The notes beneath the pieces are model-generated. The model did not search any database. It was given only the letters and a program-made list of their open reading frames with translations, and was not told the DNA's origin. Below are positions 2,457-29,648 of a stretch of DNA of 32,428 nucleotides, piece after piece. The first letter of the stretch is position 1; each line of letters starts with the position of its first letter. Position numbers and translations under genes: made by a program. This stretch comes from Candidatus Brocadiales bacterium (lineage in GTDB: Bacteria > Planctomycetota > Brocadiia > Brocadiales > Bathyanammoxibiaceae). Where the stretch lies: the NCBI GenBank assembly GCA_035283825.1, contig DATETB010000217.1, forward strand, positions 1-32,428. The letters run 5' to 3'.

Positions 2457-2553
2457 ATCCTAAGGCAAGGGGAATAAGTCCATCCATAACATGCTACCCT
2501 GCATGCCATCTACATAAACATTATGCAGGCAGGGAAGGACTTCCCCATAGATA

Positions 2554-2581
2554 GTAGGGGCAATTCACGAATCGCCCCTAC
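2554..2581. repeat. REP-like hairpin GTAGGGGCAATTCACGAATCGCCCCTAC (imperfect stem)
   Basis: Conserved GTAGGGGC/GCCCCTAC termini around an imperfect inner stem. Confidence 0.75.
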
Positions 2582-2640
2582 ATAACCGGTATCCGCTTCA
2601 GACGGGCTAATCCGTCTAAGACGGGAAAGGAGCATTGGGG

Positions 2641-3669
2641 ATGAAATATCTAGTTTGTATTGTTACCCTTTTTTTCTGTCTTCTTGCAAGAGAAGTCTTT
2701 GGTGGGTGCCATGGCAGTGTAGGGGTCGGACCAGGGAAGTCAGGGCCTGTCATCACGACCCCAGCCACAACACTGCGAAAGGGCCATTTTTTTGTGGACT
2801 TCCGTCTGGAAAACCTCAAGTTTGACCGCTACAGCGATGGCGAACTACGGGACTTTGCCTCAGAGGGGGGGCAGGAGGTACACAGCGTAGACTCCAGGTG
2901 GAGTACTATCTTGACCGGGGCCTATGGGGTAACAAATGACTTCTCAATAGGCCTTCGTCTCCCATACGTCTCTTTTGAGCAGGTAAAAGAAGGACACGTG
3001 CATGAGGATGGGGACGTAGAGTTACACAGACACGGCGACTCGGCAGACTTTGGAGACCTTACCCTCTTCGGACAATATAGACTCTTGCACCGTCATAGCA
3101 AGGAGCTGGAGGTGTCCGCCCTCTTCGGGCTGAAGACGCCCACGGGACGCACCTCTGAGAGGCCCCGCCATGGCCCGCGCTTTGAGGTGGAACACCAGCC
3201 AGGTTCTGGCTCCTGGGACCCCATGGCCGGCCTGGCCGTAACAAAACGCTGGGGTAAGTTATCCCTGGATAGCAACATCCTCTACATGTTCACCACCCAC
3301 GGCAGTCAACGCACCGTTCTGGGGGACACGTTCCTCTACAATTTCGCCACCTCTTACAGGATTGGTGAGATAAGGCACGTACACCACCACATGGTGGGTG
3401 ACCAGGTGCACGACAAGGAACACACCCACCTGGCATGGGACCTCGTGGCAGAATTAAACGGGGAGTGGCATGGCAAAAATGAAATCAGAAATAGGAATGA
3501 CGATAACAGTGGCGGGAACCAGGTCTATTTCTCCCCTGGTGTGAGGGCCACCATTGCCGACCGCTATTCGCCCTTCTTCTCCGTGGGCATACCCATTCTC
3601 CAGGACATGAACGGAAAGGAGCAGGAATCGGACTACAGGTTTGTGGTGGGAATAGGCATAGGATTCTAG
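2641..3669 (+). CDS. outer-membrane beta-barrel protein (MetA-pathway/'transporter' PF13557-like) with His-rich loops
   Basis: ATG 2641 lies 8 nt after AAGGAG; the track's TTG 2635 is less likely. Signal peptide present. FGDLTLFGQYRL and FGLKTPTG motifs and a C-terminal ...GIGIGF ending in Phe. His-rich inserts HVHEDGDVELHRHGD and IRHVHHHMVGDQVHDKEHTH. Confidence 0.7.
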   Translation: MKYLVCIVTLFFCLLAREVFGGCHGSVGVGPGKSGPVITTPATTLRKGHFFVDFRLENLKFDRYSDGELRDFASEGGQEVHSVDSRWSTILTGAYGVTNDFSIGLRLPYVSFEQVKEGHVHEDGDVELHRHGDSADFGDLTLFGQYRLLHRHSKELEVSALFGLKTPTGRTSERPRHGPRFEVEHQPGSGSWDPMAGLAVTKRWGKLSLDSNILYMFTTHGSQRTVLGDTFLYNFATSYRIGEIRHVHHHMVGDQVHDKEHTHLAWDLVAELNGEWHGKNEIRNRNDDNSGGNQVYFSPGVRATIADRYSPFFSVGIPILQDMNGKEQESDYRFVVGIGIGF

Positions 3670-3860: not shown

Positions 3861-3873
3861 CCGCCTCAGGCGG
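3861..3873. repeat. CCGCCTCAGGCGG palindrome
   Basis: Exact 13-mer palindrome in intergenic sequence. Confidence 0.85.
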
Positions 3874-3969: not shown

Positions 3970-5178
3970 ATGTCAAAAGGACTTAGACCCATTAATGCCC
4001 TTGACACGGGAGCGCCCATCAAGGTACTCCATGTCATAACCAGGCTACTGCCTGGAGGTGCGGCAGACGGTACCCTAAACCTATGTCAGGGGTTAAAGGA
4101 GAGGGGCTTCCAGGTGGAGTTGGCCGCCGCCCCAGACCCAAAGATGGCTGAGACGGTCCAAAGAATGGGCATCCCTTTTCACTCTATCCCGGAGTTCAGG
4201 AGGGACATCAACCCCTTTTACGATACCTGGGCCTTCTTCAAACTGTATAAACTCATCCGTAGCGGTGGTTATCAGGTAGTCCACACCCATACCTCAAAGG
4301 CAGGCATACTGGGCAGACTTGCCGCAAGGCTTGCCCACACCCCTGTAATAGTCCATGCACCACGGGGGAGCATCTTTCACCCCGCGTTTTTTAGCCCCCT
4401 TGTCCAGTGGTTTTTCACCTTAATAGAAAGGTTAGCGGCCCCCTGGGCCGATAAAATTATAGCCATGTGCCAAAGCGAGGCCAGGGATTATCTGGGTCAT
4501 AGAATTGCCCCAAAAGAAAAGTACACCGTAATTGATAGCGGCATTAACCTGAATAGATTCAGGCATACCCGGGTTGACGCGGCAGAAAAGAAACAGGGGC
4601 TTGGTCTGCCCAGGGATTCTTTTGTGATAGGCATAATAGCCCGACTAAGTCCCGAAAAGGGACACTTTACGGCGCTGGAGGCCTTCCAGAAGGTATATAA
4701 AGAGGTCACAGACGCCTTCCTACTGATAGTAGGAGAGGGAGAATTAAAAGAGGCGATTCGTCAGAGAATAACCAGGATGGGCATTGGGGATAGGGTGGTA
4801 ATGACCGGTTACAGGACGGATATACCTGAGATTACCCGCACTCTTGACGTATCCCTCAACCCCTCCTTATGGGATTGTAGCCCCCGTTCCGTCCTGGAGG
4901 CCATGGTCTGCGGCATACCTGTAATTGCCACTAATGTGGGCGGTATACCGGAGATGGTATCAGACGGAGAAACGGGTCTGCTTGTCCCGGCAGGAGATGC
5001 AGAGGCTATGGCCCATTGTATCCTCCGCCTGAGGAGGGATGCAGGACTGGGGAAGAAACTAACCGGCCAGGCGGCCAAAAGGGGTCAAGGACTCTTTGAC
5101 CTGCCCAGGACCGTAGAGATGGTAACGCAGTTATACCTGGAGCTACTGACCGAGAAGGGATTTTTAGGAAAGACCTAA
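3970..5178 (+). CDS. glycosyltransferase family 4 (GT-B fold)
   Basis: 402 aa. N-terminal IKVLHVITRLLPGGA. C-terminal SVLEAMVCGIPVIATNVGGIPEMV...GETGLLV, an E-x7-E-type GT4 signature. Confidence 0.85.
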   Translation: MSKGLRPINALDTGAPIKVLHVITRLLPGGAADGTLNLCQGLKERGFQVELAAAPDPKMAETVQRMGIPFHSIPEFRRDINPFYDTWAFFKLYKLIRSGGYQVVHTHTSKAGILGRLAARLAHTPVIVHAPRGSIFHPAFFSPLVQWFFTLIERLAAPWADKIIAMCQSEARDYLGHRIAPKEKYTVIDSGINLNRFRHTRVDAAEKKQGLGLPRDSFVIGIIARLSPEKGHFTALEAFQKVYKEVTDAFLLIVGEGELKEAIRQRITRMGIGDRVVMTGYRTDIPEITRTLDVSLNPSLWDCSPRSVLEAMVCGIPVIATNVGGIPEMVSDGETGLLVPAGDAEAMAHCILRLRRDAGLGKKLTGQAAKRGQGLFDLPRTVEMVTQLYLELLTEKGFLGKT

Positions 5179-5185
5179 TAACCCT

Positions 5186-6082
5186 ATGTCAGTTAAGACC
5201 CGATGTAACTTTTGTAACTCTGATGATTACATTACCCTCACCCAGGTGATTGTCTCTCCAATCCCTGAGACCTCCTGGCTGGTACGATGTAAGAGATGCG
5301 GCTTTACCTATATAAACCCCAAACCCACCCTGGAGAGGGCGAGGGGGTTTTATGACCTTGAGTATTTTAAACCGGGAGAGGAGGCGCTCTGGAGGGAGGA
5401 CAGATACCCACTGTTTGAAAAGGTGCTCTCCCGTATTGAATCCACTATCCCAGAGGGTAGGCTCCTGGACATAGGTTGTGGCAAGGGCTACTTCCTTGAC
5501 CTGGCCAGGAAGAGGGGGTGGCAGGGAGTGGGGACTGACGTCTCCTCCACCGCCATACAGTTTGCCAGGGACACCCTGGGCCTTGAGGTCTATATGGCTG
5601 AATTGAAAGACCTGAAACTACCCGAGAACTCCTTTGATGTGGCTACCGCATGGAACGTACTGGACCAGATTTATGACCCGTGGGGTAACCTGAGGGAAAT
5701 CTTCAAGGCGCTAAGAAGCGGAGGTCTCATCGCCTTAAGGGTATCCAACCTACACTTCCACTACTACCTGCAACACCTCTCTAACCTAATCAATTCTATC
5801 CTGTCAGATAGTCTAAAGGTTACAGCCCCCACCGTCTTTCACCTATACATGTTTTCCCCGGGGACACTGGAGATGCTCCTAAGGGAGGCAGGTTTTGTGG
5901 ACATACGGGTAGAGAATTCCACCCTTGACCCTAACGTCCCAGCCCTTGTAAACCTTGCCGGGAAACCTGCCGAGGTCTTATTACGGAATACCACCTATCT
6001 TTTTGCCCAGACTATCTCTTATTTGTCGTTTGGAAATCTGCTAATAAGCCCTTCCCTGGTAGCTTTTGCCAAAAAGCCCTAG
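5186..6082 (+). CDS. class I SAM-dependent methyltransferase with an N-terminal Cys4 zinc-ribbon
   Basis: CNFCNS...CKRCG ribbon, motif I LLDIGCGKGYF, and post-I/II motifs. Starts 8 nt after the GT4 gene. Confidence 0.85.
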   Translation: MSVKTRCNFCNSDDYITLTQVIVSPIPETSWLVRCKRCGFTYINPKPTLERARGFYDLEYFKPGEEALWREDRYPLFEKVLSRIESTIPEGRLLDIGCGKGYFLDLARKRGWQGVGTDVSSTAIQFARDTLGLEVYMAELKDLKLPENSFDVATAWNVLDQIYDPWGNLREIFKALRSGGLIALRVSNLHFHYYLQHLSNLINSILSDSLKVTAPTVFHLYMFSPGTLEMLLREAGFVDIRVENSTLDPNVPALVNLAGKPAEVLLRNTTYLFAQTISYLSFGNLLISPSLVAFAKKP

Positions 6083-6201
6083 TAGGGGCAGCATTGGGGG
6101 CAGAGCCCCAATGCTATAGCCCTGGTGCTCCGCCACCAGGGCTGCGTGTCTGCCCCAGACCTGGTGGTGGCGACCCATCCGCCTCAGGCGGACGCCCCTA
6201 C
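6082..6201. repeat. composite REP-like element bounded by GTAGGGGC...GCCCCTAC with nested hairpins
   Basis: Outer termini at 6082-6089 and 6194-6201. Inner hairpins GCATTGGGG/CCCCAATGC (6091-6114), CCCTGGTG/CACCAGGG (6120-6141) and CCGCCTCAGGCGG (6179-6191). Lies between convergent genes. Confidence 0.8.
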
Positions 6202-6206
6202 ATCTT

Positions 6207-6234
6207 AGAATCCAGAATTCAGTAGTCAGAATTC
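6207..6234. repeat. heptamer array AGAATCC AGAATTC AGTAGTC AGAATTC
   Basis: Four tandem 7-mers. The same AGAATTC-type array recurs at 32382-32428. Confidence 0.8.
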
Positions 6235-6242
6235 TGGACGTT

Positions 6243-7415
6243 CTATATTCTGAATTCGCTTATGAGCCTCCAGGCGCTTTTAAACCTCCAAGCCATGCAC
6301 CTCAGGTAATGGACTATCCCTATCTCAGAACCATCAAGGGCCTCCATCTCCGCCAGGATATCCCTGGGGGGGAAGAAGGTCCGCCAGAGAAATCTCATCT
6401 TATTCATCACACCCTGGTTCATTGGGAAATATACCAGGTATTGTAAACCAGGTTTATGGATACCCCTATTGATAAAATAGACGAAGGCTCTTTCCTCCAG
6501 ACCAAGGCTTAAGGGCCTGAGTCTGTCTAAAACATGTTGTGGTACATCTGTATGCATTAAGAGTTTGGTTAGATAAAGCCCATAGTATAAAGGTCTGGAG
6601 AGACGGAATTCCAGGGCCTCCCGCACTAATTCCTCCCAGTCCAGCTGCCCCCTGTAGTGGTTAATTACCAGGTGTATATCCCACAGGAGGAGGAGCCTAT
6701 CGTAGGCGTGCCTCAGGGCATGGACGCTGAGGTGGAGGAGTTGATGATGCGGGGCAAGGATGAGGCTTCTATAGCCTTCTATCTCTACGGGTATAGCCTC
6801 CTGCCACAGCTTGTCTAATGAAATTCTGTGCAGGTTAGGGAACATCCCATTTTCAATGTGCCAGTGTACCTCCAGGGACAGGACGGACTCGTCACGGTTC
6901 AGGAGGATAATTCTATTAACATACGGACCAGCCATCCCATAGGGTTTATACCCCAGAGAATCTAGCCGCCCCGTTACCTTTTCCAGGTCTTTGCGATGGA
7001 TCAGGATGTCAAAATCCATGAGGGGCTTTGCCCCTAAATCGTTATAAACCGTAGGAAGTAGGGCGGCCCCCTTCAACAGGATGACAGGTACGTCCACTGC
7101 CTTAAGACATCGCACCAACTCTCTAAAACAATACTTATGCTGGACCAGGGTTAAGAAATACTCCCGCCTCAAGTCCTCCAGATACTCCTGGGGCAGGAGA
7201 CCGTTACGGCCCTTCAACTCCTTATATAATACAAGAGATAGCCCCTCCTCCCTGGCCGTCTTTATTATGCCTCCCCAATCGTAGGGTGCGTCCTGCCTGA
7301 AAGACGGCGGATTTGCAACTTGACGTGCCCTGGAGGCTGAGCATAGAAATATGAGTTGCAAGACGTCACTCTGACGTTCTGAGACAAGTCCTCTTCGGAT
7401 ATTGCTCATAGACAC
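6243..7415 (-). CDS. uncharacterised nucleotidyltransferase (PF14907 / NTP_transf_5-like)
   Basis: 390 aa. VPVILLKGAALLPTVYNDLGAKPLMDFDILIHRKDLEKVTGRLDSLGYKP matches my memory of the family core (LLKG...R.M.D.DILV...GY). Start is GTG 7415 or ATG 7409. Last gene of the RiPP-like operon. Confidence 0.7.
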   Translation of the reverse strand: MSMSNIRRGLVSERQSDVLQLIFLCSASRARQVANPPSFRQDAPYDWGGIIKTAREEGLSLVLYKELKGRNGLLPQEYLEDLRREYFLTLVQHKYCFRELVRCLKAVDVPVILLKGAALLPTVYNDLGAKPLMDFDILIHRKDLEKVTGRLDSLGYKPYGMAGPYVNRIILLNRDESVLSLEVHWHIENGMFPNLHRISLDKLWQEAIPVEIEGYRSLILAPHHQLLHLSVHALRHAYDRLLLLWDIHLVINHYRGQLDWEELVREALEFRLSRPLYYGLYLTKLLMHTDVPQHVLDRLRPLSLGLEERAFVYFINRGIHKPGLQYLVYFPMNQGVMNKMRFLWRTFFPPRDILAEMEALDGSEIGIVHYLRCMAWRFKSAWRLISEFRI

Positions 7416-7463
7416 AGGCTATCTGTCTAAGGTGGGCCGGATTCCAGGGTTTTACGCCTTGGT

Positions 7464-8330
7464 CTAGCGATAGGCCTCCTCTGAGGTCTGTATCGTTGCT
7501 ATGGCAGGGGCGCTATATACGCCTATCCGCCTAAGGCGGACTAAGGCGGATCCGGGGCTTCGGCCTTGCTCACTACGGGCCTTGAACTTTCCTTTTATTG
7601 CCTTACCCCCTTCAATGAATTTTTCTAATGGGAACAAGGCGGCGAGCGAGATGAAACACCTTGGATAGGTCCGCCCTGTCAGGAGGATTTCCAGTGTCCG
7701 GGATAGTTCGGCCACCTTTTTCTGTAATTTGAGTACGTCAAGAGTTGGCAACACAGTCGGACATCCGGATGATAGTTCAAGTGGACTCTGGGTATTTTTC
7801 TCACACTCAGAATAATCTCTTGCATCTTCCCATATCCTGTGGGGGATACCGTATAGCCTGTCACTGGGGGGTCTGTATTCATATACCAGGCATCCACCTT
7901 GTTCGCCCGCAAAGGGGCATCTAACTTCTCTTCTAAGGAGGTGTCTTAAATATACTCTAGCATCTTGAACAACTCCGCCCAATTTCTTCTATATGGCCCC
8001 TGCAAACCTCTCAAGCCTTTCTATCTTTGGTATATCTCTCATGGCCCTTAGTCTTATGTCATGCCTTGTCTGTGGCTCAAGGGCCTGCATACCCATCCGT
8101 AGGTAATAGGCCCCTATGAAGTGGACAGAGACACCCCAACAACAGCACTCTGAACAGGCCAGTCCACAGGTTATCTTCAGGGAATGGGTGTGGACGTAGT
8201 CTTGAAACAGCCTGTCGGCCTCCGCCAGGAGGGACTTATATTCGGCCAGGATGGCCTGGACGGTGGTATTCACAGGTATTGTATGTGCTATTGTCATTAC
8301 AGTCAAGAAAGACAGCCTACGGTCTGTCAT
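7464..8330 (-). pseudogene. YkgJ/FliB-type CxxCxxCC zinc/iron-chelating domain protein (PF03692-like) interrupted by one in-frame TAG at 7989-7991
   Basis: Track ORFs 7989..8330 and 7464..7982 are in the same frame: (8330-7982) is divisible by 3. They are separated only by TAG-AAG-AAA. The upstream half has CGLACSECCC and the downstream half has RCPFAGEQGGCLVYEYRPP, which are the two halves of one domain. The second ORF has only a TTG and no SD. Confidence 0.6.
7527..7550. repeat. CCGCCTAAGGCGG palindrome plus duplicated half (ACTAAGGCGGA)
   Basis: Read as GSALVRLRRIG in the C-terminal tail of the YkgJ-like ORF. Confidence 0.8.
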
Positions 8331-8346
8331 TCTGAGTGAGCCGAAG
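8326..8346. repeat. GTCATTCTGAG(T/C)GA..CGAAG element
   Basis: GTCATTCTGAGTGAGCCGAAG here and CATTCTGAGCGAAGCGAAG at 11392-11410. Related GAAGCGAAGAATCTCAGAG at 8376-8394. Confidence 0.6.
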
Positions 8347-8354
8347 CCCTGAGT

Positions 8355-8367
8355 CCGCCTTAGGCGG
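8355..8367. repeat. CCGCCTTAGGCGG palindrome
   Basis: Exact 13-mer palindrome inside the 209-nt intergenic spacer. Confidence 0.85.
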
Positions 8368-8395
8368 ACGAAGGGGAAGCGAAGAATCTCAGAGA

Positions 8396-8490
8396 CCCTT
8401 CGCTCCGCTCAGGGTGACAGTGAGATTGTAGGGATAGACCTGCCCTGTACCAGACCTGCCCTAGAGCGGAGCGAAGGGACGGTACAGGGC
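8396..8490. repeat. interleaved inverted repeats (A-B-A'-B' order)
   Basis: CCCTTCGCTCCGCTC (8396-8410) pairs with GAGCGGAGCGAAGGG (8464-8478), 15/15. GCCCTGTACC (8442-8451) pairs with GGTACAGGGC (8481-8490), 10/10. Confidence 0.7.
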
Positions 8491-8539
8491 CTGCGTGTCA
8501 ACCCCTGTAGGGGCAGATCATGCCAGAGGCAGACCCGCC

Positions 8540-9406
8540 TCAGGTGGACTTTCCTACAAGCCCCTCCACCAGTTCGCAGGCCTCTTCCAGGTCTCCCATC
8601 TCCAGGGTATAGCACCGCGCCCTTCGTACAAGCCCTGTGAATATCTTTAGTCCCCTAGCTGGAAAGGACCGCTGGTTCCAACCCCGTTGCATCAGGGCCA
8701 TAACGGCTTTAGCCGGCTCAAGGGGTTTCAATATGGCTTTACCTTTAGGGACGTATTTGGGGAAGATAATCCAATCTACCTTCCATCGGACGTCCCTGGG
8801 CATAACGGCCCCGTCCTGAGGCACAAAGCACTGCCATCTCCATGTAGTATCATCCATGTCACGGTAACGGTAGACTCTGAAATCTTTACTCACCCCTTGA
8901 CGGAGGGGGCGGGTCCATCCGGATGCGTAGATGGGCCTCTGGAAGGGTACGACCTCCACAGTCTCATGGTGGATAGCGCTTATTTCGTCAGTAAGGTATT
9001 TATAACCGTAGTTCATAAGCCCCAGGGTAAGGGTGCTCTTTCCGCTCTCTGACTTCCCTGGCAAGAGGATGGCCCTGCCATTTTTTACTACGGCGCCGGC
9101 GTGTAATAGTATGTAATCCCTTACGTGCTCATAACAACTACTCCTAATCTCATCCATCAGGAGTGTGGACACTGCATAATCCTTATCTAGACGGTAAACA
9201 GTACGGCCTTCTTTTTCTATGTGTGTATATTTTCTCTTCTGCATCACCCTGAACCTCACTACAGGCGCCTCCCCATTAGCGGGGGATACCAGGGCCGAGG
9301 TAAGGTCACAAAATTCTCTCAGGAAGGATTTGTGGTTAGTAGTGATTTCTATGGGGAGGGAGAGTACCTTTACGTTAAGCGTTAAAAGTGTGGTGGCGGG
9401 GGCCAT
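8540..9406 (-). CDS. HPr kinase-like P-loop serine kinase (RiPP tailoring-kinase type)
   Basis: 288 aa. LLHAGAVVKNGRAILLPGKSESGKSTLTLGL matches the HprK C-terminal-domain P-loop as found in lasso-peptide kinases. Starts 11 nt after the rSAM gene. Confidence 0.75.
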   Translation of the reverse strand: MAPATTLLTLNVKVLSLPIEITTNHKSFLREFCDLTSALVSPANGEAPVVRFRVMQKRKYTHIEKEGRTVYRLDKDYAVSTLLMDEIRSSCYEHVRDYILLHAGAVVKNGRAILLPGKSESGKSTLTLGLMNYGYKYLTDEISAIHHETVEVVPFQRPIYASGWTRPLRQGVSKDFRVYRYRDMDDTTWRWQCFVPQDGAVMPRDVRWKVDWIIFPKYVPKGKAILKPLEPAKAVMALMQRGWNQRSFPARGLKIFTGLVRRARCYTLEMGDLEEACELVEGLVGKST

Positions 9407-9417
9407 TACCTTAATTC

Positions 9418-10953
9418 CTATACCACTTCCAGGAGGCCTTTGCTCTGGAACTCCTCAATGGTCTTAGTAACGTCCCTTTCCACTTGAACGGGGTCGGTCT
9501 CCAGCACACTGACGACCTCCTCCGCTATCTCCTTGGGGGTATGATTCCCGTCGCATAACTCCCAGATAACGCCTGCCATAGGGTTCAGGTGGTGTAAATT
9601 ATGGTTCTTTGGGTCATAAATAACCACCTCCTCTTCCACAGTCTCATTGATGAGGTCTATCCTTATCTTTGGCCTTTCTTTCATTCCTTTTCCTCCATGC
9701 CCCTCCACAAGCCCGGTGTAGGGGTTATACTGACAGCGCGGGTCCTTGGCCAGCAGTCTACCAGTGGTAGTCAGCGCCAGGGCACGGCAGTTAAAACATC
9801 CATAACGCAGTTCACAATCTTTACAGGTTTCTACGTTGTCCAGGGTTATCTGCCACAGCTTCTGTACGGCCTGGCCTTGTATAATTTCCTTCAGACGCAT
9901 CTCAGGAAATCTGCCTACTGGCAGGCACCTGGCAAATATGCAAGGGTATACCACCCCTTCACTACTTATGACTATCTCGCTCTTCCAACAGGTAATCCAG
10001 GAGCAAGGCCTTTCGTCAAAAACCCTCCGTCTTCTTTCTGATGGGCGCGGCAGATTTGGCTCAGGCTTCCCCTTTCCCACCCCTTCACCCACGAGGCGCG
10101 ACTCTACCTCCCCCCTCCCGGTAGGCCGAACGTAATCGTGCCCAATCTCCTCCAGTCCCAATCCCTCCAGAAATTCTCTAGTGCCTTTGAGGTGAGTGAG
10201 GTTCCCCTGCATGAGGACGATATTGGCCCGTACAGGTATTTGGTAGGACAGGAGGGCCTTTATCCCTTCTACTGTCTGCCTGAAACTTCCAGGGCTTCTG
10301 GTAATGCCATCATGGGCCTCGGGGTCGTAAGAGTAAAAAGACACAGCTACCTTTACCCCTAGAGTGGCCCACTGTCGTAGTAGCCTATCTTCCAGGCGAG
10401 TGGCATTGGTAACGACCTCTATTCCTGTATAATGACAGGACCTTGCGTACTCAACAAGGTCAATAAGACCGGGGTAGAGGGTGGTTTCTCCTCCAGTTAG
10501 CTGTACGTGCCTTGCGCCAAGTTCCGAGCCTTCCTCAAGGATTTCCTTCCACTGTCTATGGGAAAGCTCGTTAGTGCGGCGTACCCCAGCCTCCGCATAG
10601 CAGTGGGCACAGGAGAGGTTGCAGGCATTGGTGAGCTCCAGCCACATGAAACTGAGTCCGGCAGGGCCAGATTGACAGGACAGGGATTTAACGATTCCTT
10701 CGGAGACCCCACTGTTATTATTGGACGTCTCGTACTGGGCAAGTGCGGGGTGTCTTACAAAGTACCCCCTGAGCACCTGGAGGGCCTTTCCACCAATGTA
10801 GGAAGGCTTAAGAGACTGTACCCCACCTAATACATCCACCACCCGGGGGTCTATGGTATATATTTCCCCCCTCCCCAGGTCATATAAGGCAGAATTGACA
10901 GGCCCTCTTACCAGGACGATGTGGCTTTTTGCGTGGTCAACCTCGTTAACCAT
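9418..10953 (-). CDS. radical SAM / SPASM-domain peptide maturase with a C-terminal PqqD-like (RRE) domain
   Basis: 511 aa. CNLSCAHCY (CxxxCxxC). SPASM-type Cys cluster C-x2-C-x5-C-x2-C (CKDCELRYGCFNC) plus upstream and downstream Cys. C-terminal VVIYDPKNHNLHHLNPMAGVIWELCDGNHTPKEIAEEV...IEEFQSKGLL is PqqD-like. Confidence 0.85.
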   Translation of the reverse strand: MVNEVDHAKSHIVLVRGPVNSALYDLGRGEIYTIDPRVVDVLGGVQSLKPSYIGGKALQVLRGYFVRHPALAQYETSNNNSGVSEGIVKSLSCQSGPAGLSFMWLELTNACNLSCAHCYAEAGVRRTNELSHRQWKEILEEGSELGARHVQLTGGETTLYPGLIDLVEYARSCHYTGIEVVTNATRLEDRLLRQWATLGVKVAVSFYSYDPEAHDGITRSPGSFRQTVEGIKALLSYQIPVRANIVLMQGNLTHLKGTREFLEGLGLEEIGHDYVRPTGRGEVESRLVGEGVGKGKPEPNLPRPSERRRRVFDERPCSWITCWKSEIVISSEGVVYPCIFARCLPVGRFPEMRLKEIIQGQAVQKLWQITLDNVETCKDCELRYGCFNCRALALTTTGRLLAKDPRCQYNPYTGLVEGHGGKGMKERPKIRIDLINETVEEEVVIYDPKNHNLHHLNPMAGVIWELCDGNHTPKEIAEEVVSVLETDPVQVERDVTKTIEEFQSKGLLEVV

Positions 10954-11005
10954 AGTAATCCATCACCCCTTCACTACGACCAGGACTTCGGCTCACGGCT
11001 GCGAC

Positions 11006-11197
11006 TCAGGATTTAGGGGGGCAAGCCCCGTTTTTGGGCTTACACTTTCGAGGACTACAGATGGCGAGGGCCTCACCACTTGCTACAATGGTGGTGATAA
11101 TGGGGATGCTGTATGCACCCAACTTTAGGAGCCCGCGGCGAGTCTTTTGTCTCTGTCCTTCATCCGCCTGAGGCGGATTGGTAGGTTCTTTGGACAC
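11006..11197 (-). CDS. candidate RiPP precursor: twin-arginine-type leader plus an 18-aa Cys/Lys/Pro-rich core ending in Ser
   Basis: GTG 11197 lies 7 nt after GGAAGGAGGG; the track's upstream GTG 11233 has no SD. Product is VSKEPTNPPQADEGQRQK-TRRGLLK-LGAYSIPIITTIVASG-EALA / ICSPRKCKPKNGACPPKS. Sits 52 nt upstream of the rSAM gene on the same strand. Confidence 0.6.
   Translation of the reverse strand: MSKEPTNPPQADEGQRQKTRRGLLKLGAYSIPIITTIVASGEALAICSPRKCKPKNGACPPKS
11164..11176. repeat. CCGCCTGAGGCGG palindrome inside the precursor leader
   Basis: Encodes N-P-P-Q-A-D-E in the n-region of the leader. Confidence 0.85.
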
Positions 11198-11259
11198 TAA
11201 GAGCCCTCCTTCCGTTGGACTGAACACATACACAAATAATTAAGAGACCTCTACAAGTT

Positions 11260-11357
11260 GTAGGGGCGGTTCGCCCTACACCACAGGGGTATAGGGCAAA
11301 GAGGCAGATAAAGCCCTGTACCTTATTAATTATTGGTACGGGGCGAACCGCCCCTAC
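11260..11357. repeat. long REP-like composite: GTAGGGGCGGTTCGCC ... GGCGAACCGCCCCTAC with an inner hairpin
   Basis: The outer arms are complementary. Inner GGTATAGGGC / GCCCTGTACC pair has one mismatch. AT-rich TTATTAATTATTGG lies between them. Confidence 0.75.
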
Positions 11358-11370
11358 AGCACCGTTTGTC

Positions 11371-11383
11371 CCGCCTGAGGCGG
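11371..11383. repeat. CCGCCTGAGGCGG palindrome
   Basis: Exact 13-mer. A half copy CCTGAGGCGGA follows at 11416-11426, then palindrome TTCGCCTATGGCGAA at 11427-11441. Confidence 0.85.
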
Positions 11384-11448
11384 ATTTTCAACATTCTGAG
11401 CGAAGCGAAGTCATACCTGAGGCGGATTCGCCTATGGCGAAAATCTGA

Positions 11449-11476
11449 GTAGTGGCGGTTCGCGAACCGCCCCTAC
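11449..11476. repeat. REP-like hairpin GTAGTGGCGGTTCGCGAACCGCCCCTAC
   Basis: GGCGGTTCGCGAACCGCC palindrome with GTAG/CTAC ends. Confidence 0.8.
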
Positions 11477-11557
11477 AGCTTAATTAAATTTATTGTACTA
11501 GCAATTGGAGGGCTGTCAAGGATAATTGCTTGAGCCAAAAATAGACATAGACCAGGG

Positions 11558-11603: not shown

Positions 11604-12971
11604 TTAATGTTTGCCCTCCTCTACGGGGCTCTTTATGAATAACTGGGGTTTTTCCAGGAGGTTCAGTATTTTACTTATTGGTTTCCCTTCTGAGTCTGCC
11701 ATAAGCTGTACGACTGGTCTGAGTGGGAAATCCCTGTGTACGGCGATTACCCTGGCCGTCTCCCCGGTGTTCAGCATCACGGTACTACCCACGGGGTACA
11801 CACCGAATTCCCTTATGAATGCCTTGGTAACCCTGCGGCCAAAAAAGGCCACCCCCTCCTCCAGTATCTCTCTCATGGCGGTGTGCGGGGGCAGTCCTGC
11901 GCGGACGGGGCGGTTGTGCGTCAGACTCTCGTAGGCCTCGGCCACTGCTATAATCTTTGCGTATTCGTGGATGGCCTCACCTTTTAATCTGTCCGGGTAA
12001 CCACTGCCGTCCTCCCTTTCATGGTGCTGTAGGACTACCTGTTTGAAGACCTCGTTTCTAATACCAAAACCCTCCAGAAACCTTTCGGTGTATAGGGGGT
12101 GCTTCTTTACTTCCTCATATTCACTTGCCTTCAGCTTCCTCGGCTGTTCTATGATGTGGCTCAACAGGACTAGACCTATGTCTCTCAAGAAGGAAATCAT
12201 CCCCAGTTCCATCAGGCCTGACTTGTTATAGTGCAGAGACACGCCTATTTTAATAGAAATGATGGTTACGTTTACCGCATTGGAGGCAAATTGACTATAG
12301 CTTCCGTCTGAAGCGGCCGCAAGCCTGACTATACTTTCATTCCCTAAGGTGAGGTCGTCTATGAGCTTCTCTATTGCCTTTCTTAACCTTTCTATTTCAA
12401 AGTTGTGCCCGTCCTTTATTTTATCAAAGACCTCCTGGGCAAGGACCACAAACTCATGGTAAAAGGCCTGGGCCTCTTTCCATTCGTCCTTTAATTCTTT
12501 AGTCACCTGCATTTGAGGGGTTGCCTTCCCTGCGGCCCCACTCTTCTGCACGGCGTCCATTTGTTTAGATTGTTCATGTATCATCTGCCCAATGGTGCTA
12601 AAACGGAGTCTCTCCTTTGGAGGTTCTTCCCGCTCCGGCGGGTTAAGCCCCTTTAACTGCACGTTTTCTTCTGGGGCGGTTGGGGCGGCAACCTCTTTTT
12701 CTCTCTCCAGGATATCTCTAGAACTTCTTAGACTCAATTTTGCCTTCTTTCCTCTCTTTTTTGTGATTTGAGACCCCCGAAAGAGTGCCTCAATAGACTT
12801 CCTGTATGAGTCATCTTGTGATATCCCCAGTAATTCATTCTTTTCATCTTCAGACATGACCCCTTTAAAAATCAGCAGTTTACGGTCAACGTCGTAACTT
12901 ATCTTCTCTTTAAGGTTACCGGGAAATTTTGCCTTTGAAGGCAGGTTTTCCAGTCTTTCTGAAATCTCCAT
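11604..12971 (-). CDS. HD-GYP domain protein (putative c-di-GMP phosphodiesterase) with an uncharacterised N-terminal region
   Basis: 455 aa with HHEREDGSGYPD and upstream HD residues. Its start ATG overlaps the ExeA stop (TAATG). Confidence 0.85.
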   Translation of the reverse strand: MEISERLENLPSKAKFPGNLKEKISYDVDRKLLIFKGVMSEDEKNELLGISQDDSYRKSIEALFRGSQITKKRGKKAKLSLRSSRDILEREKEVAAPTAPEENVQLKGLNPPEREEPPKERLRFSTIGQMIHEQSKQMDAVQKSGAAGKATPQMQVTKELKDEWKEAQAFYHEFVVLAQEVFDKIKDGHNFEIERLRKAIEKLIDDLTLGNESIVRLAAASDGSYSQFASNAVNVTIISIKIGVSLHYNKSGLMELGMISFLRDIGLVLLSHIIEQPRKLKASEYEEVKKHPLYTERFLEGFGIRNEVFKQVVLQHHEREDGSGYPDRLKGEAIHEYAKIIAVAEAYESLTHNRPVRAGLPPHTAMREILEEGVAFFGRRVTKAFIREFGVYPVGSTVMLNTGETARVIAVHRDFPLRPVVQLMADSEGKPISKILNLLEKPQLFIKSPVEEGKH

Positions 12972-13804
12972 TACTTTACGTACCGTGCCGCCAGCCTCAG
13001 GTCCTCTGCAACTGCCTTTACTATGGCGTCGCTCACCAGTTCAACCTGACTGCTGAATCCCATGAGGAGGCTCAAGTCACAGACATTATTTATAATCCTG
13101 GGGATGCCATTTGAGGCCCTGTATATCAACTCAATGGTGCTAACGTTGAATATCTCCCTGTTGCTGCCCGCCGCTTTCAGCCTGTAATCTACGTATCTTC
13201 CCACCTCTTCTCTGCTAAGGCCCGAGAGGTTGTATCTTATTGCTATACGTTGTGCCAGGGGCTCGTGTTGCTTGATCCTTTGTGCCAGTTCCGGCTGGCC
13301 CAGAAGGACGATGGTCACCAGGAAGGCGTCGTTCTTCTGGAAATTCAGTAGCAGCCTGATTTCCTCAAAGATGGCCTCGTCCTTGATGACATGGGCCTCG
13401 TCAATTATGAGTACACAGTATCGGCTTTTTTCGTTACTCTCAAATACAATGTCCTCCAGTCTATGGAGCAAATCTAGCTTACTTGTTGCCTGAGGCAGGC
13501 TTTCAAGCCCTCCGAACTGATATATCAGTTCTCGTAATAGGTCATCAACGGTGAGGGCCGGGTTTACTATTACGGCTATATTGTAGTTCTTTTCCTCTCT
13601 AGAGAGTATTCTCACCAGCATCCGGCTGAGGAGGGTCTTGCCGGCGCCAATATCCCCTGTAATCATAACAGCCCCCTTCCTCTCCTTTACCCCGTATAAT
13701 AGCCTGGTGAGGGCCTCCTCGTGGCCTGCCGAGTAAAAGAAGAAATCCGGGTTAGGGGTGTTTTCGAAGGGTTTCTTTTTTAGTCCCCAATAGTCCAGGT
13801 ACAT
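12971..13804 (-). CDS. ExeA/GspA-like AAA ATPase
   Basis: 277 aa. N-terminus MYLDYWGLKKKPFENTPNPDFFFYS is typical of the ExeA family. Walker A GDIGAGKT and Walker B LIIDEAH. Confidence 0.8.
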   Translation of the reverse strand: MYLDYWGLKKKPFENTPNPDFFFYSAGHEEALTRLLYGVKERKGAVMITGDIGAGKTLLSRMLVRILSREEKNYNIAVIVNPALTVDDLLRELIYQFGGLESLPQATSKLDLLHRLEDIVFESNEKSRYCVLIIDEAHVIKDEAIFEEIRLLLNFQKNDAFLVTIVLLGQPELAQRIKQHEPLAQRIAIRYNLSGLSREEVGRYVDYRLKAAGSNREIFNVSTIELIYRASNGIPRIINNVCDLSLLMGFSSQVELVSDAIVKAVAEDLRLAARYVK

Positions 13805-15594: not shown

Positions 15595-16667
15595 GACCCC
15601 GAAAACACCTCCCCAACGTTCCTGGCTACGTATTCCACCTGTTCCTGTCTCAGGGAGGGGTAAATGGGTATGGAGACCAGGGTACGGTGGGCCTCCTCCG
15701 CATTGGGGAACTCCCCATTGTCCAGGTGTAGGTACTGGTGAAGGGGCTTGAAGACGGGCCTCTTGGATTCTACCCCCCTGGCCTCCAGACTCTTAATTGT
15801 TTCCTCTACGGTCTGCCTTGTCTTGAGGACGTACCTGTAAAAGGCGTGGGTAGAACCCTCCCTCCTGTAGGGTATTTCCAGACCATAATCCTTTAGTATC
15901 CTGTCGTAGGTAGCCGCTATCTCACGTCTCCTTGAGATAAAGTAGTCTAACTTTTGCATCTGGCTCAGTCCCATGGCGGCTTCTATGTCCGTCATCCTGT
16001 AGTTGTATCTTACCTGATAATCCTCTCTCTCGTCATACTCTCTGAGGTCCCTTGCCTTTTCCATCAGGGTGGAGGAATTGGAGGCAAGCATGCCCCCGTG
16101 TCCTGTGGCAATCATCTTGGTGGCGTAAAAGGAGAAGATGGAGGCCGTCCCCAGGCCTCCCAACCTCCTTCCCACCCCGGAGGGGTCCGCCTTAGGCGGA
16201 CCGCCAAGGCTATGGGCACAGTCCTCAATAATTGGAATTTCCAACTCTAACAGACTATTTACGTCAGCAGACTGACCAAAGGTATGGACGACAATAAGGG
16301 CCTTTGTCTTTGGATTGGCCTGCTTCTTGACTTCTTTTAGGTCTATATTCAGGTCTTGCCCATCTACGTCAACCACCCTGGGCGTGGCCCCCACGTAGAG
16401 GATGGGGTTGAGCACTGCCGTGCATACGTAACTGGGGACGATGACCTCGTCCCTTGTCCCTACGCCCATGGCCAGGAGCAGGAGGTGCAAGGCCGATGAA
16501 CCGGAGTTGGTGGCGAGGGTATGCTCCACCCCCAGATAGTCCTTAAATACCCCCTCCAGCTCCTCCACCTTCGGTCCCTGGGCAATGTAGTTGGAGCTAA
16601 GCACTTCCCTTACCATGTCTAACTCCTCTTTCTCTAACGTGGGCAAGGAGTGAGGTATCTTCCTCAT
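15591..16667 (-). CDS. DegT/DnrJ/EryC1/StrS-family PLP-dependent sugar aminotransferase
   Basis: IEDCAHSLG...FSFYATKMI contains the PLP-Lys region. I prefer ATG 16667, which gives an ATGA overlap with the PIG-L stop and N-terminus MRKIPHSLPTLEKEE. The track start is GTG 16685. Confidence 0.85.
   Translation of the reverse strand: MRKIPHSLPTLEKEELDMVREVLSSNYIAQGPKVEELEGVFKDYLGVEHTLATNSGSSALHLLLLAMGVGTRDEVIVPSYVCTAVLNPILYVGATPRVVDVDGQDLNIDLKEVKKQANPKTKALIVVHTFGQSADVNSLLELEIPIIEDCAHSLGGPPKADPSGVGRRLGGLGTASIFSFYATKMIATGHGGMLASNSSTLMEKARDLREYDEREDYQVRYNYRMTDIEAAMGLSQMQKLDYFISRRREIAATYDRILKDYGLEIPYRREGSTHAFYRYVLKTRQTVEETIKSLEARGVESKRPVFKPLHQYLHLDNGEFPNAEEAHRTLVSIPIYPSLRQEQVEYVARNVGEVFSGS
16187..16199. 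repeat. CCGCCTTAGGCGG palindrome in frame within the DegT CDS
   Basis: Extended palindrome GGTCCGCCTTAGGCGGACC at 16184-16202, read as G-P-P-K-A-D-P. Confidence 0.85.
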
Positions 16668-21083: not shown

Positions 21084-21353
21084 ATGAAGAGTATAGGCGA
21101 AGTTTCCCAAAGGCTTTCTGTTTATCAGGCTAGTTGTCCTCAGACTGAACCGGTCTACATTGAAATCTTGCGGAAAATGGGGGGAGAAAAAAGGCTAAGG
21201 GTTGCCCTGGAACTCTACGAAATAGCACTTAATTTGGCAAGACAAAATATATTAGAAAAGTACCCGGATATTACAGAGGAAGAACTCAAAAGGAAAATCT
21301 TTGAAAGATTTGGTTATGATACAGGAAGACTTGCTGGTAAAAGTAATAGATAG
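21084..21353 (+). CDS. hypothetical small protein, upstream partner of the nucleotidyltransferase-fold protein
   Basis: 89-aa ORF that overlaps the next gene. I recognise no family. Confidence 0.45.
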   Translation: MKSIGEVSQRLSVYQASCPQTEPVYIEILRKMGGEKRLRVALELYEIALNLARQNILEKYPDITEEELKRKIFERFGYDTGRLAGKSNR

Positions 21354-21876
21354 ACTAAACCAGGTGAATATTCCATACATGATTACCGGCGGGATTGCTA
21401 CCATCTTCTACGGAAGACCTAGACTGACCCATGATTTTGACATTGTAATAGATGTGGGCCCTGAGCAAATACAAAGGCTTATAGACACCTTTGGAGAAGA
21501 GTTTTATGTAAGCAAAGAGGCCGTCAAGGAGGCCATGGATAGACACAGTATGTTTAACTTGATACACCTGGACTCTGGAATAAAGGTGGATTTCTGGATG
21601 CTTCAGGATGACCCATTTGACAGGAGGAGATTTGGACGAAGACAAAGACACGCCTATTCAGGAAGGGAGAGTGTCTTTTCTTCACCTGAGGATGTGGTTC
21701 TTAAAAAGCTTCTATGGTTTAAAGAGACAGAGGCAGAAAGACACCTTGTAGACGCCCTTGGGGTCCTGGAAGTCCAGCAAGACCTGGACGTGGCCTATCT
21801 CAAGGAGTGGGCGGAGAGACTGACCATTAAGGACTTACTAAACGAACTGTTGAAGAAGGTAGGAAAAGAGGACTAA
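21316..21876 (+). CDS. nucleotidyltransferase-fold protein (MNT/AbiEii-like), possible toxin-antitoxin component
   Basis: MITGGIATIFYGRPRLTHDFDIVID resembles the G..A...YG..R.T.D.D core of minimal nucleotidyltransferases. I prefer ATG 21316 to the track's TTG 21301. Confidence 0.5.
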   Translation: MIQEDLLVKVIDRLNQVNIPYMITGGIATIFYGRPRLTHDFDIVIDVGPEQIQRLIDTFGEEFYVSKEAVKEAMDRHSMFNLIHLDSGIKVDFWMLQDDPFDRRRFGRRQRHAYSGRESVFSSPEDVVLKKLLWFKETEAERHLVDALGVLEVQQDLDVAYLKEWAERLTIKDLLNELLKKVGKED

Positions 21877-24630: not shown

Positions 24631-25059
24631 GTGGCAGAGACAGTTTCGATAGAAAGGCTTAAAGAATACTTTAGCAAGAGGCAGGACGTGGCCTTCGCCT
24701 TCCTATTCGGTTCGCAGGCCAGGGGCGTGGCAACTAAACTGTCGGACGTTGACATTGCCGTATATTTTTATCCGAAAAGGAGATATCCACTGGAATACGA
24801 GAAAGATGTCTTCTACCCCTCTGAGGATGAGATACATACAGACCTTGAGCGGCTACTAAAGAGGGAAGTAGAGTTACTAATTTTAAACAGGGTATCTTCA
24901 ACAATCACCGCAAGTGCTATAAGGGGTATACCCCTGGTGATAAGTGATTGGGGGCTATACCTTGATTTCATGCTGGTCGTAACAAGAGTAGCAGAAGACT
25001 TCATGGACCTTGTGATAAACGATTATAAAGAGAAGACCTCCATTGAAAAGAGAAGTTAA
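24631..25059 (+). CDS. mntA: MntA-type nucleotidyltransferase antitoxin
   Basis: GTG start. FLFGSQARG...SDVDIAVYF is the GSx10-11DxD minimal nucleotidyltransferase motif. Confidence 0.8.
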   Translation: MAETVSIERLKEYFSKRQDVAFAFLFGSQARGVATKLSDVDIAVYFYPKRRYPLEYEKDVFYPSEDEIHTDLERLLKREVELLILNRVSSTITASAIRGIPLVISDWGLYLDFMLVVTRVAEDFMDLVINDYKEKTSIEKRS

Positions 25060-25486
25060 ATTTAGGCTCATAAAACATATAACTTTTCTGGAAAAGGAGC
25101 TGGAGGATTATAAAATCTTCCAAAACCTTTCATGGAAAGAGTATTCCGAGGAAAGAAGCAAACGAAGGGATGTAGAAAGATGGATTGAAAACATCATAAA
25201 CTCGTCCATAGATATTGCCAGGATAATCTTAACCTCGGAGGGGAAAACACCACTTGCAGATACATATAAAGATATTGTTCGTTCCCTTCTTGTCGTGCCA
25301 GGTTTTGATGAAGCACTTATGAATAATCTTTCCGAATGGACACCGCTAAGGAATGTCATTTCCCATGAATATTTGGATATTAGATGGTCTTCAATAAAAA
25401 AGTTTATAAGTGAAACCGAACCCCTATATAAGAACTTTCTTGGGCAGGTCAAGAAGTACCTAGAGAGGCAATTACTAGCCGAGTAG
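25043..25486 (+). CDS. hepT: HepT-type HEPN (DUF86) toxin
   Basis: RNVISHEYLDIRW contains R-x4-H-x-Y. Overlaps mntA by 17 nt. Confidence 0.8.
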   Translation: MKREVKFRLIKHITFLEKELEDYKIFQNLSWKEYSEERSKRRDVERWIENIINSSIDIARIILTSEGKTPLADTYKDIVRSLLVVPGFDEALMNNLSEWTPLRNVISHEYLDIRWSSIKKFISETEPLYKNFLGQVKKYLERQLLAE

Positions 25487-29249: not shown

Positions 29250-29648
29250 ATGGACCAAAAGATGAGAACCGAGGTCAAGAACTGGTTAGATTCTGCTCAA
29301 TATGATTTAGATACTGCCGAACACATGTTCACTACTGGCAGGTATATCTACACGGTCTTCATGTGCCATCTCGCCCTGGAGAAGGCGCTTAAGGCAAAGG
29401 TTGAAGAAATAACTGGTAAAACACCACCCAAAACCCACGACTTAGGGTATCTTGTGGGAATTGCCGGGTTATTGCCCGATAAAGACATAGAAGAGTTCCT
29501 GGTAGAAACTAGTAATCTCAGTATTGTTACAAGATATCCAGGAGACTTCCAAAGGATGCTCAGGGATTTTTCATTAGAAAAGACTGAATCTATTTTGATA
29601 AAGACAAGAGAGGCTTTTCAATGGATAAAGAAATCCATAGTATTATAA
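29250..29648 (+). CDS. HEPN domain protein (toxin-type component)
   Basis: AQYDLDTAEHMFTTGRYIYTVFMCHLALEKALKA...THDLGYL follows the classic HEPN (PF05168-like) pattern. Confidence 0.8.
   Translation: MDQKMRTEVKNWLDSAQYDLDTAEHMFTTGRYIYTVFMCHLALEKALKAKVEEITGKTPPKTHDLGYLVGIAGLLPDKDIEEFLVETSNLSIVTRYPGDFQRMLRDFSLEKTESILIKTREAFQWIKKSIVL

Follow-up and report, generated by a model that had tools for sequence, protein, structure and literature searches.

In lasso-peptide clusters, the HprK-family kinases PadeK, ThcoK and PsmK phosphorylate the C-terminal serine of linear precursors (PMC9266682; PMC6993621), and lasso kinases of this type need a His-Lys-Asp-Asp motif (PMC9266682); the protein PsmN is required for the addition of hexoses (+162, +324 Da) to the phosphoserine of pseudomycoidin, and its D134A/D136A mutant is inactive (PMC6993621). 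Relatives of both enzymes occur on contig DATETB010000217.1 of a Candidatus Brocadiales bacterium (anammox order), of which 32,428 nucleotides (the window) were analysed, in an array with a small precursor gene and a gene for a radical S-adenosylmethionine (rSAM)/SPASM enzyme fused to a PqqD domain, that is, to a recognition element (RRE) of RiPPs (peptides that the ribosome makes and that are modified after translation). These genes form a real, undescribed RiPP-like set, in which the building blocks are known and the combination, a Cys-x-Pro core motif and a leader of twin-arginine translocation (Tat) type, apparently read by the RRE, are new; no description of this architecture was found in the literature searched, nor any characterised RiPP class that has it, in line with an earlier note on this sequence. 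With moderate confidence we favour a RiPP-like operon, set in a conserved polysaccharide locus, in which the rSAM enzyme would modify the Cys-x-Pro motifs, the kinase and the PF14907 protein would decorate the terminal serine, and the product would be exported by the Tat pathway.

Gene content, precursor family and co-occurrence

Open reading frame (ORF) calls place an array of five genes on the minus strand (Table 1), separated by 52, 11, 209 and 48 nt, exactly the layout that the earlier note had given. Among the other large ORFs of the 32-kb window, Pfam and NCBIfam searches found no asparagine-synthetase-like lasso cyclase, no transglutaminase-type leader peptidase and no ABC exporter, as that note had also held. 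Asn_synthase genes do exist in two of the related loci (numbered L below; proteins are numbered P), L001 and L102, where they encode proteins of 617-633 aa in polysaccharide contexts, that of L001 additionally carrying glutamine-amidotransferase domains.

The precursor is identical to the 63-aa NCBI-called product P0247. A search with a profile built from 13 peptides returned 91 homologous peptide clusters, none of them annotated, and no Pfam or NCBIfam model recognises any precursor. The clusters form two types. Type 1 (18 distinct sequences) adjoins an rSAM::PqqD gene in every locus read; its leader follows the pattern EEQ(K/R)x(K/R)xRRxLLKLG(A/V)Y(S/T)IPI(I/V)TT...A-x-A and is succeeded by a core of 14-45 residues, in which 38 of the 39 cysteines belong to a Cys-x-Pro motif (binomial probability 1e-33 at a Pro frequency of 0.12) and which ends in Ser in all 18 sequences. 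Type 2 (78 distinct sequences) has the same leader; its core is acidic, then basic, and essentially Cys-free, and it ends in G[LV]S or CLS in 69 of 78 cases, most of the others being truncated or frame-shifted. The type 2 loci read comprise a stand-alone PqqD of 85 aa, a kinase of 304 aa, the peptide and PF14907, and have no rSAM enzyme. This contrast between loci with and without the rSAM enzyme pairs the Cys-x-Pro motif with the rSAM enzyme, and the kinase and the transferase with the terminal Ser; the earlier proposal that kinase and transferase act on the C-terminal Ser thus gains strong comparative support. Leader residues Y29 and P32 do not vary across both peptide types, and the EEQ motif, I31, I34 and T36 hardly do.

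The Cys-x-Pro motif is kept in two distant rSAM-bearing loci, with about ten copies in L012 (43% rSAM identity; PCKPTRPCRPCVPPCGPTPCRPWPCKPRPCRPGPCKPGPC) and CNP...CMP...CTP in L007 (34%). Just upstream of the L012 precursor lies a gene (5776-6210) for a 144-aa protein whose N-terminus, DRRQFIKAGLVLGAGIVLL, is Tat-like, although its 13.3 bits on TIGR01409 stay below the cutoff, and which also has a PqqD domain; the precursor itself has no RR leader. The precursor of L004 (7692-7967) has tandem CHPHQ repeats (CHPHQCHPHQCHPHQCHPKRRKCHP) and a His-rich tail, a composition that suggests metal binding. A lipoprotein (lipobox) reading of A-x-A-x-C was considered and rejected, since the residues at -1 and -3 are inconsistent (LAIC, LAVC, HAGC, HATC, LAQC) and several cores have their first Cys far from the site.

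Gene neighbourhoods were read for L001-L008, the metagenome locus L012 and ten genome loci found through their kinase, all re-annotated with our own profiles; most sequences that the rSAM alignment retrieved from metagenomes were generic SPASM enzymes, only L012-L018 being informative. The window, L001-L005, L092 and L093 (44-88% rSAM identity) and the distant L012 and L007 each combine peptide, rSAM::PqqD and kinase. Counted by enzymes, rSAM-PqqD and kinase are found in 9 further independent loci, 8 of which also have PF14907; counted over the eight independent rSAM loci that retain their upstream flank (34-88% rSAM identity), peptide, rSAM-PqqD and kinase are present in 8/8 and the nucleotidyltransferase in 7/8. 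In every rSAM::PqqD locus the kinase gene directly adjoins the rSAM::PqqD gene, PF14907 is present in all but L007 and L008, and wherever there is an upstream flank a small ORF lies next to the rSAM gene (in L005 it has the opposite orientation; in L001 the peptide gene is cut by the contig end, which leaves its last 20 codons, ...EALAVCLPARGLVKLGTALVS). Because it recurs in independent contigs, this arrangement is far beyond chance; the co-occurrence of the enzymes elsewhere and the conservation of the small ORF, on which the earlier note had staked its reading, are therefore both observed. The rSAM-less Brocadiales loci share the gene order of the window. In L093 (Scalinduaceae) the kinase gene (2469-3347) is split into ORFs of 164 and 87 aa, possibly by a frameshift or an assembly error.

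In five of five more distant systems (L010, L011, L102, L103, L104), the product of the gene beside the PqqD/kinase genes, be it a peptide or a protein, bears a twin-arginine leader, and a (Y/A)-x-x-(T)P-x-(I/V/L) segment is common to these leaders and those of Brocadiales. L010, which has a bona fide TIGR04352 kinase, is a classical exopolysaccharide locus with a PF14907 gene; a small ORF that lies upstream, in the place of the PqqD partner, has no family match. In L103, two near-identical gene pairs (4001-4890 and 6232-7148) flank a gene for a PqqD-kinase fusion; each consists of a PEP-CTERM-type protein (TPEP, membrane segment, RRR) and then a 58-aa peptide with an RR leader, and the system is therefore tied to exosortase cargo.

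The rSAM enzyme matches PF04055 (1e-24), PF13186 (1e-6) and PF05402 (4e-14); the last corresponds to the PqqD domain at about residues 430-511, a match on residues 421-511 having 2e-15. The CX3CX2C motif (C111/C115/C118) and seven SPASM cysteines (C322...C407) are invariant in 14 aligned homologues, and about 44 close cluster representatives have the same rSAM-SPASM-PqqD architecture. By sequence profile, the closest solved relatives are SkfB (1e-32), PqqE (2e-21) and CteB (2e-11), the anaerobic sulfatase-maturating enzyme (anSME) matching the rSAM core only (1.5e-12, PDB profile search); by fold, in a Foldseek search with an AlphaFold2 model, they are SkfB (1e-17), CteB (2e-12) and anSME (2e-10). 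The enzyme thus groups with peptide maturases and not, as the earlier note had allowed for, with non-peptide enzymes. The closest solved relative of its PqqD domain is the lasso leader-binding protein TbiB1 (1.7e-10), and the model hints at a possible second RRE within the N-terminal 100 or so residues, a unit of three strands and three helices at residues 11-75.

The kinase has the P-loop GKSESGKST. In its alignment (A2), H102, K123 and D140 never vary and E141 hardly does, and these four residues match in position the His-Lys-Asp-Asp motif known from lasso kinases. Its AlphaFold2 model (predicted local distance difference test, pLDDT, 74.5) matches PEPCK (5e-7) and the HprK/P structures 1knx, 3tqf and 1kkl (about 1e-4) in Foldseek, and the HprK-related family comprises 2,372 representatives at 50% identity for E<=1e-30 and 15,325 for E<=1e-10. 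The PF14907 protein scores 157.5 bits against a cutoff of 31.2, and its D134-x-D136 is invariant in an alignment of 22 sequences. Of the families that the earlier note had listed for the five products, PF04055, PF13186, PF05402 and PF14907 are thus found, PF07475 (Hpr_kinase_C) is matched by the kinase only marginally (E 0.008), and PF03692 is not matched by the window copy of the fourth gene. Fused proteins link all parts of the system: PqqD-kinase fusions exist elsewhere (P0147-P0168, L011, L103, L104), kinase-PF14907 fusions account for four of four tested proteins of about 700 aa (P0273, P0284, P0297, P0334), and rSAM-PqqD is the fusion of the window itself.

Proposed maturation and export, and competing explanations

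Maturation would begin in the cytoplasm, where the PqqD/RRE domain fused to the rSAM/SPASM enzyme would bind the leader. The enzyme would then modify each Cys-x-Pro cysteine, most likely by forming a thioether, possibly to the +2 Pro within the motif, or else by an anSME-like oxidation of the Cys; a thioether is suggested by the relationship to SkfB and CteB and by the repetition of the motif, short repeated Cys motifs in the core resembling ranthipeptide logic. By analogy with the lasso enzymes, the HprK-related kinase would next phosphorylate the side chain of the invariant C-terminal Ser, and the PF14907 protein would elaborate the phosphoserine, as PsmN does with one or two hexoses on phospho-pseudomycoidin. 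The peptide would finally exit through the general Tat pathway, with signal peptidase I cutting the leader after A-x-A, which would explain the lack of a dedicated protease or ABC exporter.

The leader is a putative Tat signal on the grounds of its pattern: that of the window fits the TatP regular expression RR.[FGAVML][LITMVF], its T-R-R-G-L-L-K being followed by 16 uncharged residues (mean hydropathy 1.43) and then by E-A-L-A, an A-x-A (small-x-small) site, and the leaders of the family also pass this expression, with 11-21 uncharged residues of moderate hydropathy. Kuenenia, a member of the Brocadiales, encodes TatA/B, TatC and signal peptidase I (PMC2881027). The bufferin authors regard such peptides as poor Sec substrates; a Tat route would suit a cross-linked, phospho-glycosylated cargo.

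Several observations weigh against this proposal. The chemical steps are all drawn by analogy; we know of no precedent for a Cys-Pro thioether, nor, to our knowledge, is Cys-x-Pro a described donor/acceptor pair; and the model of the rSAM enzyme is mediocre (pLDDT 66.7). The kinase, with 113.2 bits on TIGR04352 (HprK_rel_A), stays below the family cutoff of 200, which the L010 kinase, used as a control, passes with 379 bits; the window PqqD domain likewise stays below that of TIGR04353 (25.7 bits against 35), which the stand-alone PqqD of the sister locus L009 just passes (36.2 bits). The L012 precursor has neither an RR leader nor a terminal Ser, that of L007 has Gly as its last residue and no RR motif, and the substrates of the five distant systems do not end in Ser. 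Finally, the window peptide matches none of the curated Tat-signal hidden Markov models (TIGR01409 at NCBIfam E<=0.1, Pfam TAT_signal at E<=0.01), the leader is far more conserved than ordinary signal peptides, and a leader-like segment is found at the C-terminus of the YkgJ-like protein, where a role as signal is impossible.

The main alternative for the rSAM step, which we consider unlikely, is an oxidation of each Cys-x-Pro cysteine to formylglycine, or to some other product confined to one residue, the +2 Pro then serving as a recognition element and not as the partner of a cross-link. It is the main alternative because the +2 Pro belongs to the sulfatase motif as well: anSME recognises C/S-x-P/A-x-R. 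In several precursors there is only one Cys, no neighbour apart from the +2 Pro is invariant, and many motifs read C-x-P-K/R, some of them C-x-P-x-R (CGPGR, CRPKR); anSME is, moreover, a SPASM enzyme with a detectable fold match. It is nevertheless a weaker relative than SkfB and CteB, matches the core only and lies outside the top 25 NCBIfam matches, and anSMEs are not known to use an RRE or a leader.

It is about as doubtful that the leader is only an RRE-recognition or membrane-associating segment without a functional Tat signal, so that the product would be intracellular or would exit by an unlinked route, its leader being kept or cut by an unlinked protease. The motif may indeed be only an RRE tag, since it is unusually conserved, the constraint on Y29, P32 and the near-invariant residues around them being uncommon for signal peptides, and since the YkgJ-like proteins of L098, L101 and the window end in a copy of it; the missing model matches and the L012 precursor without RR point the same way. 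Against this, the RR pattern, the uncharged h-region and the small-x-small site recur in all five distant systems, where the substrates of L010 and L102 are proteins of 171-268 aa with ordinary-looking Tat signals, and neither the window nor the gene calls of those related loci that were examined show a dedicated protease or exporter. We think that the primary, selected role of the leader is to bind the RRE and that Tat targeting is a second role.

An improbable third possibility is that the peptide is a carrier or anchor for the polysaccharide pathway, a phospho-sugar link built on its terminal Ser by the kinase and the PF14907 protein being extended by the glycosyltransferases of the locus to yield a peptide-linked glycan of the extracellular matrix. 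The genomic setting lends itself to this idea. From 17386 down to 6243, the genes of the window lie nearly all on the minus strand; upstream of the cluster are genes for HD_5, an AAA_22 ATPase, a WecA-like transferase, WbqC, a DegT aminotransferase and a PIG-L deacetylase, and downstream a methyltransferase and a GT4 enzyme related to the glycosyltransferases of PEP-CTERM/XrtA systems. The same array encloses homologous clusters, the AAA_22-HD_5 pair adjoining the RRE/kinase genes in L005, L009, L012 and L095-L099 and HD_5 doing so in L002 and L004; the cluster is thus part of a conserved polysaccharide locus and not the orphan operon it had been taken for. The canonical relatives L010, L102 and L103 also stand in PEP-CTERM/exopolysaccharide loci, and PsmN is needed for hexose addition to phosphoserine (PMC6993621). 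Gene context is, however, all that the carrier explanation draws on; the full sugar context is missing from L003, L007 and L011, and glycan priming on a C-terminal phosphoserine of a peptide has no known precedent.

That the small ORF, short and without a database family as it is, should be spurious, the enzymes acting elsewhere and the neighbourhood being coincidental, is effectively refuted by its 91 homologous clusters, its conserved position beside the RRE gene, the strict rules for leader and core, its ribosome-binding site and the NCBI call.

More tentatively still, and with low expectation that it holds as a whole, PqqD, kinase and PF14907 might constitute a general pathway to hold, modify and then export: the RRE would read a twin-arginine signal and hold the cargo until it is modified, after which the cargo would be released to Tat; the Brocadiales branch would add a new reaction at Cys-x-Pro, for example a Cys-to-Pro staple, and its products, peptides whose C-terminal serine is phospho-glycosylated, would help to build or organise the anammox extracellular matrix. 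If the favoured model of the operon holds, it would be the first RiPP-like pathway with a Tat-type leader read by an RRE, would extend the Sec (bufferin) and lipoprotein (DAG-RiPP) precedents, and would explain how bulky, cross-linked cargo leaves without a dedicated transporter; a strict new Cys-x-Pro substrate motif for a radical-SAM/SPASM enzyme would make new chemistry likely; the uncharacterised system of HprK-related kinase A and PF14907 would gain a substrate family and a testable function; and the pair of C-terminal Ser kinase and PsmN would be taken out of its lasso context. The polysaccharide locus in which the operon lies belongs to anammox bacteria, organisms of practical interest for their matrix and granulation, and the paired loci, with and without rSAM, make the assignment of enzymes to residues directly testable.

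Accessory gene, repeats and further features of the window

The fourth gene had been described as encoding a YkgJ/FliB-like protein, but an in-frame TAG splits it into ORFs of 113 and 172 aa. Neither half has a Pfam or NCBIfam match, and the joined sequence has no Pfam match even at E<=1; the intact orthologue of L098 reaches PF03692 with E 3e-4 and 21.8 bits, the cutoff being 23. Orthologues occupy the same position, after the kinase, in L098 (3608-4405) and L101 (177-956), where they are intact, and in L095, where the gene is frameshifted, which argues for an ancestral accessory; it is absent from the other rSAM-type loci and is thus optional, and in the window it seems to be decaying. Recoding of the TAG as selenocysteine or pyrrolysine was rejected: the orthologues have Glu at that codon, so that a nonsense mutation is the simpler reading.

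The C-terminal tail of the YkgJ-like protein copies the leader motif of the precursor without any core (window RLRRIGVYSAPAIATIQTSEEAYR, 7464-7540; L098 EQKFKVRQRLMKMGVYSMPAVATVLAVEEET), and may mimic the leader, allowing the protein to dock on the PqqD/RRE domain. The same codons were also considered as the relic of a second precursor gene that a repeat insertion had destroyed, and this was rejected, since the tail belongs to the YkgJ-like protein in L098 and L101. Likewise rejected was the idea that the inverted repeats flanking 7565-8339 bound a mobile insertion with the YkgJ-like ORF inside it: this gene has the same position in L095, L098 and L101, and the supposed arms are copies of the genome-wide palindrome CCGCCTNAGGCGG.

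This 13-nt palindrome, which looks like a REP-like (repetitive extragenic palindromic) genome repeat, occurs 7 times in the window against 0.02 expected, and two copies bracket the YkgJ-like ORF; the spacer of 209 nt is thus repeat-filled, as had been noted. The copy inside the precursor ORF (11164-11176) encodes a 'PPQA' insertion in the n-region of the leader, which is common to P0255 and P0259 from other metagenome-assembled genomes. A second palindromic family (GTAGGGGCGGTTCGC and its complement, in several nested inverted pairs) fills 11255-11481, within the 370 nt that separate the peptide gene from the HD_5 gene, and has a related copy at 8505-8519; similar repeat-filled spacers lie between peptide and rSAM in L001. 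The promoter-like site upstream of the peptide gene is only suggestive, because no more such sites occur than shuffled sequence would lead one to expect.

Elsewhere in the window, and unrelated to the operon, are two toxin-antitoxin-like nucleotidyltransferase/HEPN pairs, at 24631-25486 (Polbeta and HepT-like) and 29250-29941 (HEPN and NTP_transf_2). An ORF of 191 aa at 21301-21876, probably also unrelated, weakly matches PF10706 (aminoglycoside-2''-adenylyltransferase; 6e-6), a fold to which PsmN reportedly has limited structural similarity.

Table 1. Coordinates of the cluster, its neighbours and associated sites in the window
Feature	Position	Strand	Remarks
PF14907 (NTP_transf_5) nucleotidyltransferase-fold protein, 390 aa	6243-7415	-	Pfam 6e-46
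CxxCxxCC (YkgJ-like) accessory gene	7464-8330	-	in-frame TAG at 7989-7991; probable pseudogene
HprK-related P-loop kinase, 288 aa	8540-9406	-	TIGR04352 1e-32
Radical SAM/SPASM enzyme fused to C-terminal PqqD (RRE), 511 aa	9418-10953	-	Pfam
Precursor peptide gene, 63 aa + stop	11006-11197	-	GTG start at 11197, GGAGGG ribosome-binding site
Precursor core, residues 46-63 (18 residues)	11009-11062	-	ICSPRKCKPKNGACPPKS; three Cys-x-Pro motifs, C-terminal Ser
Precursor leader, residues 1-45	11063-11197	-	EEQ-like n-region, T-R-R-G-L-L-K, uncharged LGAYSIPIITTIVASG, E-A-L-A
Promoter-like site TTGACA-16-TACAAT	11492-11519	-	about 295 nt upstream of the peptide start
HD_5 (HD-GYP-like) protein gene	11604-12971	-	Pfam; conserved upstream neighbour
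AAA_22 ATPase gene, related to the XrtA/PEP-CTERM system ATPase	12971-13804	-	conserved upstream neighbour
CCGCCTNAGGCGG copies	3861-3873, 6179-6191, 7527-7539, 8355-8367, 11164-11176, 11371-11383, 16187-16199		REP-like palindrome

Comparison with known systems

The C-terminal tailoring of lasso peptides (paeninodin PadeK, ThcoK, SyanK; pseudomycoidin PsmK and PsmN) resembles the window in its HprK-family kinase and PF14907-type 'NTP transferase', in the strictly conserved C-terminal Ser of its precursors and in kinases that act on the linear precursor (PMC9266682; PMC6993621), and its catalytic residues, H/K/D/D-like and DxD, are kept in the window enzymes. Unlike lasso clusters, the window has neither a lasso cyclase nor a B2 protease; its class-defining enzyme is radical-SAM/SPASM, and its leader is Tat-like. 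The earlier view of lasso-type tailoring enzymes on an rSAM scaffold therefore stands as far as the identity of the enzymes is concerned, but not as to an exclusive origin in lasso clusters: HprK-like kinase, PF14907 and PqqD are not only a lasso tailoring set, but form a large stand-alone system.

NCBIfam names its kinase and PqqD parts the 'HPr-rel-A system' (TIGR04352, HprK-related kinase A; TIGR04353, PqqD family peptide chaperone), defined in silico only, in which a PqqD/RRE protein likewise stands beside an HprK-related kinase, and in whose loci, as far as examined, a PF14907 gene follows in an exopolysaccharide or PEP-CTERM setting. Twin-arginine-leader substrates were found for it here, in five of five distant loci and in all Brocadiales loci; the L012 and L007 precursors lack RR. 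The PqqD domain of the window is, unlike that of HPr-rel-A, fused to a radical-SAM/SPASM enzyme; its kinase and PqqD being sub-threshold kin of that system, the window is best regarded as a divergent, rSAM-bearing branch of it.

Sactipeptide and ranthipeptide maturases (SkfB, CteB, PapB-type) likewise combine rSAM, SPASM/twitch and RRE domains and act on Cys precursors; the window differs in its C-terminal RRE (with a possible second one at the N-terminus), in its Cys-x-Pro motif, in the addition of kinase and transferase, in its Tat-like leader and in having no peptidase or ABC exporter. The SynChlorMet (Scm) cassette of NCBIfam also assembles an HprK-like protein (ScmC), a PqqD protein (ScmD) and rSAM/SPASM enzymes (ScmE/ScmF), and ScmD is the best NCBIfam match of the window PqqD domain (39 bits), the rSAM enzyme matching ScmE/ScmF with 73-83 bits; these scores are far below the cutoffs (ScmC 17 against 125, ScmD 39 against 100, ScmE 83 against 400), and the Scm proteins are separate rather than fused and have a different precursor. 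Metagenome loci with kinase, PqqD and separate rSAM enzymes do exist.

With respect to export, the closest parallels are the bufferins and DAG-RiPPs, whose leaders are likewise signals for general export, signal peptidase standing in for a dedicated protease and exporter (10.1101/2024.03.18.585515; PMC13056109). These systems use Sec or lipoprotein signals and MNIO enzymes (oxidative enzymes that depend on multinuclear non-haem iron), where the window has a Tat-like signal and a radical SAM enzyme with an RRE; and whereas the bufferin signal peptide is dispensable for modification, the leader of the window is probably what the RRE reads.

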